A stretch of DNA of 32,000 nt, from assembly GCA_964648855.1 (NCBI GenBank), contig CAZYLT010000004.1, positions 169,532 through 201,531 of the forward strand, written 5' to 3'. The stretch is from an uncultured archaeon. Its GTDB lineage: Archaea; Asgardarchaeota; Thorarchaeia; Thorarchaeales; Thorarchaeaceae. Made by a program: the position numbers and the translations under genes. Under the pieces are notes generated by a model. That model saw nothing but the letters and a program-made list of their open reading frames with translations, was not told the origin of the DNA and ran no database searches. This document shows, piece by piece, positions 22,655 through 25,531 of this stretch (positions are counted from its first letter, which is position 1; every line of letters starts with the position of its first letter).

Positions 22655-23602
22655 TCAGTTGGTAGTTTTCTTTTTCAACATCGACATAAGAGTCTCGAAG
22701 GTATTGTCACACAACCAGATTGCCCCCTGATTGAAATTCAACGCGAGTTTGTGTATGATGCTTACTTCATGGCACGCTTCCGCAAGTCTTCGTGCCTGTC
22801 TGAATGAGGAACTGGAGTCAAATATGATTCCACTCTCCCTTGCCACTCGACGTACACAGGCGTCCACAGGAAGTAGATACGTCTGTGCTTCGACTGATTT
22901 CACGTACTCATCAACCTCATCATAGAATAGGTCTACGAGATCTCTTAGATATGTGGCTGCGCCAATATGCCCAACACCGGGAAACTGACATAGTCTTTCA
23001 TAAACTCCGGAAATATTGTGGTTTTGTATCTCATTGATGCTATATTGCACTATATTCCCAGAGGGCAATGTCATCAAAAACTGGAGCACGCCATCACCCT
23101 TGTTCTTCCCGCTCATCTCGACGCCAAACAGCATTTGAATATCGGTTTTACTCTTGTAGCTCGTACCATCATATTGTATCTTTTCAAAAGCTAGTCTTGC
23201 CCCGGAAAGGGCCTTCTCCTCTGTCCCAACTATTCCATCCGGAGAGGCTATGTCAATGATGCCGTCAAATGTATCTTCCACCATTTCCCGTATTCGCCTG
23301 GAAACAATCTTGTTTCTCCCTCGATCCAGTAGCTTCATGAGTAAGAATCGAAACGCATGCCACCAATGGGTTCGAATCAGTTCTATATTGCTTCCTAGTA
23401 TTTTCATGTAGTGATTCCGGTATAACCCCGAAAATTTTGCTACACGGGCAATCATGAGGTTGTCCATGGAAAGAGTCACCGATGCATTCTGAGTATATCG
23501 GGATATATATGACTGTGCAATTCTGTATAGCTGCTCTCTATAGAGAAGCAAACTTATGGTGCATATCAAATCGTAACGGAGCATCCAAATGTATGCAAGC
23601 AT
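22655..23602 (-). CDS. HhH-GPD superfamily (DNA glycosylase-like) protein
   Basis: FPGVGHIGAATYLRDL (helix-hairpin-helix) and LPVDACVRRVA (PVD motif). Start uncertain. Confidence 0.6.
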   Translation of the reverse strand: MLAYIWMLRYDLICTISLLLYREQLYRIAQSYISRYTQNASVTLSMDNLMIARVAKFSGLYRNHYMKILGSNIELIRTHWWHAFRFLLMKLLDRGRNKIVSRRIREMVEDTFDGIIDIASPDGIVGTEEKALSGARLAFEKIQYDGTSYKSKTDIQMLFGVEMSGKNKGDGVLQFLMTLPSGNIVQYSINEIQNHNISGVYERLCQFPGVGHIGAATYLRDLVDLFYDEVDEYVKSVEAQTYLLPVDACVRRVARESGIIFDSSSSFRQARRLAEACHEVSIIHKLALNFNQGAIWLCDNTFETLMSMLKKKTTN

Positions 23603-23689: not shown

Positions 23690-24412
23690 ATGCCGAAGAG
23701 CAAGTTCTCCAGAGATATCGACACGTTGCTATTGGAGCTGACGCCGCACTCCAATTCCGATGTCATGTCGAAATTGGCAAATATACGAGATCGTTTGGTC
23801 CAGCTCAAGAAACAACGAGTAGTAAAAATCAATCACAGTGTATTGGAATTACTTGTTTCAAAATACCTGCTGGAGTCTGGATATGATGTCTATGTAGAGG
23901 AACCCATGGACGGAGGCCCGCTGATTGCTGACATTCTGGCTCATCGCAGACCAATGAAGAAAGCTGAGATGCTGAAGCAATCCATAGAGCAAGAAGTCCT
24001 GATGGAAGAGTCAGAGAGCCTGCTTGTAGAGATTGAAACGGGCTTCGTACCCCCTTTCGCTGCTCTCAATCCAGGAGAATATAGACAGGCTCGCATAGCC
24101 GCCAAGATTGCCCGCTATAGTTGCCTAACTGACAGATTTGCTCTTGGCGCTCCATTCTATCATTTGCTTCAAATCCCACGCATGTACTTGAGTAACCCAA
24201 AAGAGAGAACTGAGGCTGAAGCCCAGAAAGTCAAGGCCCTATGTGATATTTATTATCGTGATCCTCGTATTCCACTTGAGAGTCTACTCTCAGCAGAACT
24301 GGATTCGGTCTACCTTATTGATGTAGATAATAGGTCCGTTTCCCGCCTATCCGCTCGCTCTTACCTTGAATATCTTCGAGGGCCGAGTGACTTGTTCAAG
24401 GCGGTCACATAA
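23690..24412 (+). CDS. Conserved archaeal hypothetical protein with PD-(D/E)XK-like motifs
   Basis: HSVLEL...GYDVYVEE...IADILA...LLVEIETGFVPP...ARIAAKIARYS. Confidence 0.7.
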   Translation: MPKSKFSRDIDTLLLELTPHSNSDVMSKLANIRDRLVQLKKQRVVKINHSVLELLVSKYLLESGYDVYVEEPMDGGPLIADILAHRRPMKKAEMLKQSIEQEVLMEESESLLVEIETGFVPPFAALNPGEYRQARIAAKIARYSCLTDRFALGAPFYHLLQIPRMYLSNPKERTEAEAQKVKALCDIYYRDPRIPLESLLSAELDSVYLIDVDNRSVSRLSARSYLEYLRGPSDLFKAVT

Positions 24413-24470
24413 ATGACCCAAAATATCACATGCCCCAAACCTTATTAGGTTACATTAACTATATTGAATT

Positions 24471-24696
24471 AGCCGTCCGAGGAGTACGCTAACGACTGAC
24501 GAGCTGAGCATGTTCGTGTTGGGCACGACCATTAACCCGATCGCAAGGTGGCCGAGCATAAATACAGCACGGATAGCTGATCGGCACATAGCGTGACTAA
24601 GTAGTACCCAATAATTCGGTAGCTGGGCATTACGTCGAAGTCATGCCTACGATGAGATAAGGCCGATAATCAGTCGAGGCTTAGACTTGGACGGCT
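24471..24696 (+). ncRNA. Unassigned structured non-coding RNA candidate (about 226 nt)
   Basis: 11-bp terminal helix AGCCGTCCGAG/CTTGGACGGCT, several nested helices, TATA-like AAACCTTATTA about 25 bp upstream, T-rich tract downstream, no long ORF. Confidence 0.6.
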
Positions 24697-24772
24697 TCCT
24701 TATTGTATGGCACATTCAGGGAACATTTTCATGGCCATCTCAGTAATATGAAACATGGTTCTTTCTCTTGTA

Positions 24773-25531
24773 TTACTCTCGTAGGAGGAGACTAAGATAA
24801 CCTCTGATGTTGTAGATATGTTCTCTCTCATGTTCAAGGAACCTACGAATGATTTTGTAAGTAGACCATTTCTCATTGGGGTATCTTGTATAGTCCGGTC
24901 TTGTCAATATCATCCCATTCTTTGATGGGACCAAAAAACGAAGGGTCTCAATACTTGCCCCTCTAACTATCTCCATTCTCTCAAGTATTGGCAGTGAATC
25001 CGCTTGGGATTCTGCCATACCAAGATACCCCTCATAGATTCTGTCAGTTTCTTCACCTAGTCTAGAAATGTAGAATTCTTCTGCATTACAAATATGTGCA
25101 AGAATGCCTTGGATATTTCTGCTCTTGGCTGGAGGGGTCTTCTCCATGACATCTAAAGGTAGATCTCTCACCAATTCCAAAAGATCCACTCTATTATATC
25201 TCATACATCGAATGCATCTCTCGAGCAAGTCATTGTTTACTCTCTGGCGATCGAAATCATAGAATGCCACCTCACCTCCCGACTCCCCTAGTTCTGCCAC
25301 GTTGGACTCAACATCTGTAACAACCAATTCAATTTCGTTGATGGTAGGAGTGGACTCTCCGTGGCTTTCTAACCATTTGACATGATAGGACACTTCTTTC
25401 TCAAGGCGAGAAATAACTTCTTCCCGGGACCTGCCTCGAGCATGTGTGCCAATCAATCCTACTATTCGGCCATACCAGAGGTTATCTCCGCCATGTTCCA
25501 AGGCAATTTTCTGAGGCATCGGATAAGCCAC
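24773..25531 (-). CDS. DinB/YfiT-family protein with N-terminal HicB-like domain
   Basis: N-terminal LIGTHARGRSREEVISRL (HicB-like), then ILAHICNAE and IRRFLEHEREH (DinB His triad). Confidence 0.75.
   Translation of the reverse strand: MAYPMPQKIALEHGGDNLWYGRIVGLIGTHARGRSREEVISRLEKEVSYHVKWLESHGESTPTINEIELVVTDVESNVAELGESGGEVAFYDFDRQRVNNDLLERCIRCMRYNRVDLLELVRDLPLDVMEKTPPAKSRNIQGILAHICNAEEFYISRLGEETDRIYEGYLGMAESQADSLPILERMEIVRGASIETLRFLVPSKNGMILTRPDYTRYPNEKWSTYKIIRRFLEHEREHIYNIRGYLSLLLRE

Follow-up and report, generated by a model that had tools for sequence, protein, structure and literature searches.

The DNA analysed here (hereafter, the window) is a 32,000-nucleotide (nt) stretch of a Thorarchaeaceae genome that contains, at positions 24471–24696 of the + strand, the gene of a 226-nt structured RNA. 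It is flanked by two convergent protein genes, one at 23690–24412 (+), whose product is termed the partner protein below, and one of the DinB family at 24773–25531 (−). Few structured RNA classes of this size are left to find in cellular life, and almost none have been described for Asgard archaea. A preliminary description of the locus had placed a plus-strand RNA here, possibly of a new family, between convergent genes. The open reading frames (ORFs) confirm that position, and the strand is favoured by computed stability: the + strand folds to −80.9 kcal/mol with z = −2.96 (0 of 200 shuffles equal), against z = −1.85 for the − strand.

Rfam 15 gave 0 matches at gathering thresholds over the whole window, nothing but noise at E ≤ 10 on the 551 nt around the RNA, and 0 matches at E ≤ 0.01 on six homologous loci covering three RNA subtypes, in keeping with the suggested new family. 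At the RNA locus, ARAGORN detected neither a tRNA nor a transfer-messenger RNA (tmRNA). The archaeal RNase P RNA (155 bits) and the archaeal signal recognition particle (SRP) RNA (108 bits) sit on other contigs; the genome is therefore archaeal and our RNA is neither of the two, which bears out the earlier view that it is not a tRNA, RNase P RNA or SRP RNA. Bacterial RNase P RNA and SRP RNA were not found in the genome, and tmRNA and 6S RNA fell below the cut-off. A C/D small RNA would have a C box, RUGAUGA, and a D box, CUGA, near its ends; positions 24471–24696 contain neither RUGAUGA nor UGAUG. The RNA has no tandem repeats of the kind looked for in type III antitoxins. A search of its own genome returned one copy only, and literature searches found no description of the family. 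Two further candidates were rejected. In an RNase P-like P4 pairing, GAGGAG/GGCUUA, the strands are not complementary, and the RNase P type T model gave no match in a comparison whose control was uninformative; a K-turn reading of the GA/AG juxtaposition fails on misfitting extra nucleotides and on G–A pairs that are not conserved.

Transcription signals were compared across 42 homologous loci aligned on the first base of the terminal stem, P1. Common to these loci are a purine-rich stretch and a TATA box (CTTATTA or CTTAATA) at −31 to −24, an AT-rich element at about −10, and a T-rich tract directly 3′ of the 3′ strand of P1; promoter and terminator signals travel with the RNA irrespective of the neighbouring genes. 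The TATA-like box and the downstream pyrimidine tract reported earlier for the window are thus both conserved, and the box is centred some 26 nt before the RNA begins. RNA polymerase would start near 24471 from a promoter made of a B recognition element (BRE) and TATA box, and stop in the T tract past 24696. A conserved TAnnnT 7 nt upstream was first taken as a bacterial −10 box; this reading was dropped because the genome proved archaeal, and the BRE/TATA pair sits at the right distance.

Within the family, BLAST searches of 24 and then of 85 genomes gave homologues in 8 and in 21. The covariance model R1, derived from 20 full-length copies (alignment A3), detects the RNA in 48 of the family's 86 genomes and in 10 of 16 genera, in most cases as one copy per genome, and, among 151 sampled genomes of the phylum, also in one genus of another class (128–139 bits). 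Weak R1 matches in Bathyarchaeia lie just upstream of the gene of the same partner protein, on the opposite strand. The Bathyarchaeia RNA is shorter (143–171 nt) and has the same promoter, P1, bulge–helix–bulge (BHB) core and terminator. By a second model, R2, about 24 of 65 non-Asgard loci have a Bathyarchaeia-type RNA beside the protein gene; where the two are not adjacent, R2 finds the RNA elsewhere in the genome. Five Thorarchaeaceae genomes of 97–99% completeness contain no RNA by either R1 or R2. In one complete Thorarchaeota chromosome (L036/L096; G082:C1, about 1049900-1050070), the 3′ half of the RNA reads as N and the copy was left aside.

Many genomes carry a second, lower-scoring paralogue (type 2). 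These RNAs (L071–L079, for example G005:C2:145010-145231 and G017:C1:3881-4101) reach 86–125 bits with R1 and occur without the nuclease-like partner gene; their upstream motif is highly conserved, with GTGCAG..CTCAG ahead of the TATA box and, at −10, ACTATAGTTA; their terminator is TTCCTGCGTTTTGG. One contig of genome G012 (G012:C28) holds two tandem RNA copies 1.6 kb apart (L086:5001-5228 and L086:6611-6837), with ORFs of 90 and 167 amino acids (aa) between them and a degenerate BHB (UAAG/GUCU) in both. G012 is itself without the nuclease-like gene, and two congeners have fragments of that gene only and no RNA. In Bathyarchaeia, longer and weak R2 matches of 220–233 nt (G210:C2:269525-269755, G211:C22:60396-60627, G264:C1:64543-64773 and G304:C1:275501-275733) occur with or instead of the form of about 165 nt, and may be a further subtype of the family.

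Fold, bulge–helix–bulge motif and predicted ring

The fold of the RNA (Table 1) was assessed in a 44-sequence model alignment with 56 modelled base pairs. Over the full structure, 94.5% of cells are paired, compared with 83.2% in shuffled columns (0 of 500 shuffles reach the observed value) and 26–36% when partners are slid by 1–3 columns. Compensatory (double) changes occur in 46 of the 56 pairs, so that the locus shows covariation as well as conservation across the family. The inner helix h′ and P2 together have 95.7% of cells paired, with 7 of 7 pairs covarying and a conserved P2 core at 24493–97/24672–76. Arm A is composed of helices 24503–06/24574–77, 24514–21/24565–72, 24523–24/24556–57 and 24528–31/24549–52, and the apical loop of arm B bears a conserved UUCGGU. 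Each arm is tied down by a pseudoknot: PK1 has 100% of cells paired and double changes in 5 of 5 pairs, PK2 93% and 3 of 4. Within the fourth helix of arm A, the window's RNA has an A–C mismatch at 24528/24552; the sister genome, whose RNA is otherwise 98% identical, has A–U there.

This fold departs in part from the six helices drawn in the preliminary description, which we scored in 42 other homologues. Helix 1 (24471–81/24686–96; 97% paired, with many compensatory changes) and helix 2 (24493–99/24670–76; 95% paired, first 5 bp conserved) stand as P1 and P2. Helix 3 (24510–16/24553–59) is paired in only 45% and is not conserved, covariation backing 24514–21/24565–72 instead. Helix 4 (24580–85/24662–67; 63% paired) gives way to PK1 (24538–42/24579–83) and PK2 (24616–19/24663–66); its strands, ATCGGC/GCCGAT, are an artefact that arises because two pseudoknot partners resemble each other in this genome. 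Helix 5 (24592–98/24639–45) holds in the window's lineage and in G012 only and, with a shift of register, not elsewhere, and of helix 6 (24601–10/24624–33) the first 5 bp are conserved and the remainder is not. Judged from these comparisons, 24471–24696 is a real, presumably separately transcribed gene for a structured RNA outside the catalogued families. The earlier inference of a stable, independently transcribed RNA appears supported, and incomplete rather than wrong: absent from it were a BHB motif, the two pseudoknots and a conserved link to the nuclease-like neighbour gene.

Table 1 Features of the RNA gene and its partner protein gene in the window
Feature	Positions	Strand	Basis or remark
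Gene of 240-aa partner protein (c1, P0001)	23690–24412	+	ORF; 58 nt upstream of the RNA
Promoter: purine-rich BRE-like stretch, then TATA box TTATTA (24442–24447)	24433–24447	+	42 upstream regions aligned
Proximal promoter element TATATT, −11 to −6	24460–24465	+	Consensus ATAnT; ACTATAGTTA in paralogue
Primary transcript body, precursor of structured RNA	24471–24696	+	Covariance model R1, 197.6 bits; covariation
P1 5′ strand, outer BHB helix (exon–exon), pairs with 24686–24696	24471–24481	+	97.5% of cells paired; 7 of 11 pairs with double changes
Central 4-bp BHB helix, 5′ strand GAGU, pairs with GCUU 24679–24682	24482–24485	+	
5′ 3-nt bulge ACG, predicted 5′ cleavage site	24486–24488	+	
Predicted excised, circularized RNA, 197 nt	24488–24684	+	BHB geometry; presence of EndA and RtcB; PMC4731332
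Inner helix h′ CU (with AG 24677–78), AA bulge, P2 5′ strand CGACUGA (with 24670–24676)	24489–24499	+	
Arm A, four helices, 17-nt apical loop	24503–24577	+	Covariation
PK1: arm A loop CGAUC (24538–42) with GAUCG (24579–83)	24538–24583	+	
Arm B: 24592–98/24639–45 (lineage-specific register), 24601–04/24630–33	24592–24645	+	
PK2: arm B loop UCGG (24616–19) with CCGA (24663–66)	24616–24666	+	
GCUU (central helix 3′ strand) and 3′ bulge AGA (24683–85), predicted 3′ cleavage site	24679–24685	+	
P1 3′ strand	24686–24696	+	Covariation
T-rich tract TTCCTTATTGT, likely archaeal terminator	24696–24705	+	Homologous consensus TTCTTGCTTT

The two ends of the RNA come together in a fixed order of elements, namely the 11-bp P1, the AGA bulge, GAGU/GCUU, the ACG bulge and the CU/AG inner helix running into P2, which is the order of an hBHBh′ motif. 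A BHB, as defined for archaeal RNAs, is cut by the tRNA-splicing endonuclease and the resulting ends are joined by RtcB (PMC4731332). Both flanking helices, P1 outside and CU/AG with P2 inside, covary. On the 3′ side, GCUU and AGA are part of GGCUUAGAC, which is invariant across phyla, and on the 5′ side the central helix occurs as GAGU, GAGC, AAGC, AAGU or GGGC, each of which pairs with the invariant GCUU (86.6% of cells paired; alignment A5). When a canonical BHB is taken as 4 of 4 central pairs, two 3-nt bulges and an inner helix of at least 2 bp, a parser recognizes it in 43 of 60 family members and inspection by eye adds five more; the 3′ bulge is AGA in 39 of the 60. The canonical form is found in all Thorarchaeaceae type-1 copies, in the second Asgard class and in the Bathyarchaeia-type RNAs, and a degenerate one in the type-2 paralogues, both G012 copies and one further locus.

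Because its ends form a tRNA-splicing signal, the RNA is probably cut out and closed into a ring, and we regard circularization as likely. Such BHB-driven circularization of a functional RNA has a precedent (PMC4731332), and the biogenesis of circular RNA by EndA plus a ligase has been reviewed (PMC12558985). The genome encodes two proteins of the EndA family (PF01974; 111 and 78.5 bits), with genes at G000:C6:63923-64177 and C4:31164-31424, as well as RtcB (597 bits; C12:38433-39743). EndA, the tRNA-splicing endonuclease, would cut in both bulges, presumably two nt into each, a position that may be off by 1 nt. RtcB would then join the ends of the inner piece into a 197-nt circular RNA, leaving behind a 29-nt hairpin of ligated exons (computed at −19.9 kcal/mol). 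We infer a junction at which 24684 is joined to 24488, so that GAGGCUUAG would run directly into GCUAACGAC. The predicted ring consists of a stem capped by an invariant 7-nt loop, GCUUAGG, that ligation would make, plus two arms, and the apical loop of each arm would pair with the strand just 3′ of that arm to give the two pseudoknots. Creation of the GCUUAGG loop by ligation would explain a sequence conservation that EndA does not require.

The neighbouring nuclease-like protein

The partner protein has no family in Pfam, NCBIfam, PADLOC, the PDB sequences or the ESM Atlas. In an AlphaFold model made from 16 homologues (predicted local distance difference test, pLDDT, 86; predicted template modelling score, pTM, 0.84), its core (residues 46–222) matches PD-(D/E)XK proteins by both Foldseek and VIA-align. 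VIA-align Z-scores are 10.5 for SPO1766 (3dnx), 9.3 for XisH (2okf), 8.4 for AF1548 and 7.3 for NucS; Foldseek matches XisH, CdiA-CT and NucS, and further structural matches include restriction enzymes, the nuclease domains of Can2/Card1 and CdiA-CT. The invariant residues D81 (strand 79–86) and E114-x-E116 (strand 109–115) fall on the strands expected for a PD-(D/E)XK fold, in a D…ExE variant that we take to resemble the catalytic triad of BamHI. By this model, the partner is a PD-(D/E)XK-fold, nuclease-like protein. Its best matches, the small XisH-, AF1548- and SPO1766-like proteins (2okf, 2inb, 1y88 and 3dnx; Z 8.4–10.5), are only 13–14% identical to it, are themselves uncharacterized and include none known with an RNA partner; compared with them, the archaeal protein adds an N-terminal helical hairpin. 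EndA is not among the listed structural matches, which does not exclude a relationship to EndA. The family comprises no fewer than 2,857 clusters and occurs in 569 or more species genomes, from Thor-, Hermod- and Promethearchaeota, Bathyarchaeia, Brockarchaeota, Nitrososphaerota and Methanomassiliicoccales.

Protein and RNA are linked in both of the lineages that we sampled for this purpose. Within Thorarchaeaceae they occur in the same 10 of 16 genera, and 24 of the 25 genomes with the protein also have the RNA, which lies no more than 400 nt from the gene in about 20 of the 25, in tandem, divergent or convergent orientation; in the commonest layout it starts about 50 nt past the stop codon. 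Among 121 Bathyarchaeia genomes, 20 have the RNA and 59 the protein. The protein is present in 19 of the 20 RNA-positive genomes, and in 13 of these 20 the two genes are divergent neighbours (Fisher p = 3e-6 for the association, calculated over related genomes that are not independent).

In Thorarchaeaceae, the locus is framed by an HD-domain gene, a GNAT gene and mvhD on its upstream side and by genes for a cupin and an acyl-CoA dehydrogenase on its downstream side. This frame surrounds type-2 RNAs and the window's RNA alike, and the locus is old, syntenic and ancestral. In many Bathyarchaeia the neighbours of the protein gene encode UPF0147, a p27-like zinc ribbon, an HD protein, a Nop2/RsmB-like methyltransferase and a Nip7-like PUA protein, a context that appears closer to RNA housekeeping than to a defence island.

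Interpretation and precedents

We favour, with moderate confidence, a stand-alone gene whose product is made into a 197-nt ring by EndA and RtcB and works with the PD-(D/E)XK nuclease-like protein. The ring would most likely serve as a stable RNA subunit, scaffold or regulator of that protein, and a direct complex between the two appears somewhat probable. Any specific cellular role can be offered with low confidence at most. Tentatively, the pair could be a new ribonucleoprotein (RNP), conserved from Asgard archaea to Bathyarchaeia and engaged in RNA or DNA metabolism, in which a circular, double-pseudoknotted RNA is an obligatory subunit, activator or specificity factor of the nuclease; one possible role for such an RNP is the opening or surveillance of circular or BHB-processed RNAs.

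Several observations weigh against the favoured reading. The association counts are inflated by the relatedness of the genomes. Half of the RNA-positive Thorarchaeaceae genomes are without the protein and, in Bathyarchaeia, no RNA was detected near many of the protein genes, which makes the partnership a non-obligate one. The Thorarchaeaceae RNAs without protein, together with the near-complete genomes without RNA, indicate that the pair is accessory and that the RNA can exist alone, and we infer that the joint function is non-essential. Type-2 and G012 RNAs have a degenerate BHB, yet are conserved. EndA does not need the invariant sequence that the BHB strands show, so the motif could serve another purpose. 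A search of metagenome contigs for the predicted junction pattern returned 26 chance matches, none of them the RNA.

In one alternative, unlikely in our estimate, the RNA stays linear and the BHB-like loop is a sequence-specific platform for the nuclease-like protein or another factor. The excess invariance concerns both strands (AGYANGCU and GGCUUAGAC), the type-2 and G012 RNAs have been kept with their degenerate motifs, and promoter and terminator frame exactly the 226-nt unit, all of which a linear RNA would accommodate. Such an RNA is harder to reconcile with an exact hBHBh′ geometry (4 bp and 3 + 3 nt on opposite strands) that is kept across two phyla between covarying flanking helices, and with the persistence of the same invariant sequence in genomes that lack the protein.

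The distribution of the pair could also be that of a toxin–antitoxin-like or defence module, in which the protein would be a toxic nuclease, the RNA its type III-like inhibitor and the orphan RNAs a form of immunity. Genomes with the protein nearly always have the RNA as well, whereas the RNA often occurs alone, and the pair is patchy within genera and its RNA missing from genomes of 97–99% completeness, all in line with such a module. We nevertheless consider this quite improbable. PADLOC gives no match; a type III antitoxin would consist of tandem repeats upstream of the toxin gene, but the RNA is free of repeats and lies downstream of, or divergent from, the protein gene; and a circular RNA would be stable, whereas an antitoxin is labile. 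The placement of the Bathyarchaeia gene among housekeeping genes of RNA biogenesis and the synteny and ancestry of the Thorarchaeaceae locus likewise speak against it.

Archaeal BHB introns can carry homing endonucleases, and the adjacency of a nuclease gene and a patchy distribution that reaches across phyla might suggest a selfish element composed of an intron-like RNA and a homing-type or RNA-guided nuclease. This is very improbable given that there is mostly one copy per genome, that the nuclease gene lies outside the excised part, that close relatives show no hypervariable guide-like segment, that the chromosomal position is stable in the family and that no terminal repeats are seen. Least probable of all is a divergent or circularly permuted known RNA, which a ring could mask as in the Thermoproteus SRP RNA (PMC4731332), or a cis-regulatory element of a neighbouring mRNA: the Rfam searches are empty although partial matches would also show at E ≤ 10, canonical RNase P and SRP RNAs sit elsewhere and C/D boxes are absent, and the RNA has its own promoter and terminator and varies in orientation to its neighbours.

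The circular RNA that we favour has its nearest known counterpart in the SRP RNA of two Thermoproteus species, T. tenax and T. uzoniensis, which is circular, BHB-processed and permuted (Plagens et al. 2015, PMC4731332). It too is a structured non-coding RNA with a BHB formed by leader and trailer, which is cut by the tRNA-splicing endonuclease before the ring is closed, presumably by RtcB. The Thermoproteus RNA is a permuted version of a known RNA with a known function, whereas ours cannot be assigned to a known family, shows no demonstrable permutation, adjoins a nuclease-like gene dedicated to it and is predicted to be circular. Archaeal circular tRNA introns and the intermediates of pre-16S and pre-23S rRNA (PMC12558985) share the hBHBh′ signal with its 4-bp helix between two 3-nt bulges, the long stem and the expected enzymes; in those cases a host RNA yields the ring as an intron or processing intermediate, and here it would be the conserved, structured part, the 'exons' forming only the 29-nt stem.

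Two further systems resemble the pair rather than its processing. Y RNA and Ro60 likewise combine a small structured RNA that ends in a conserved stem with an adjacent protein partner and an accessory distribution; however, our partner has a PD-(D/E)XK fold instead of a Ro/TROVE ring, and our RNA has a BHB and two pseudoknots and shows no sequence or model match to Y RNA. The omega RNAs of TnpB and IscB (obligate mobile element-guided activity, OMEGA) are also structured RNAs beside a nuclease gene, but our nuclease-like protein is neither RuvC nor HNH, and our RNA has its own promoter and lacks a guide segment and transposon ends.

The RNA family thus spans at least two archaeal phyla, is absent from Rfam and bears a processing signal dedicated to it, which would turn the mature RNA into a ring. 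If this is true, BHB circularization, so far a matter of introns, rRNA intermediates and one permuted SRP RNA, would also include a free-standing gene that makes only a circle. The pairing with the RNA is the first functional lead for a large, unnamed family of nuclease-like proteins, and it defines a two-component system that can be tested.

Further observations on neighbouring genes

A third universal neighbour gene of the RNA–nuclease pair was not found in the loci compared. At the edge of the window, positions 1–250 belong to an HD-domain gene (G000:C4:168966-169781, −). Its identity is 62% with the HD gene lying about 2.5 kb ahead of Thorarchaeaceae type-2 RNAs, and 42–44% with the HD gene that, in at least 15 Bathyarchaeia loci, immediately follows the nuclease-like gene. 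The HD gene may recur as a third neighbour of the pair, or may reflect no more than old synteny.

In one group of Bathyarchaeia (L106–L139), the promoter region of the nuclease-like gene, at about 2440–2480, is strongly conserved (TGTGCATAAAAGCTTTTGAC) and shares GTGCA with the motif upstream of Thorarchaeaceae type-2 RNAs; the shared GTGCA may be the site of a common regulator. In the window, a 315-aa ORF at 22655–23602 (−) is divergent from the nuclease-like gene, has no Pfam match and is conserved only in the sister genome. In another group of Bathyarchaeia (L140:3172-3426, L142, L146–L148, L154, L156 and L163), an 84-aa GIY-YIG nuclease gene directly follows the PD-(D/E)XK-like gene.

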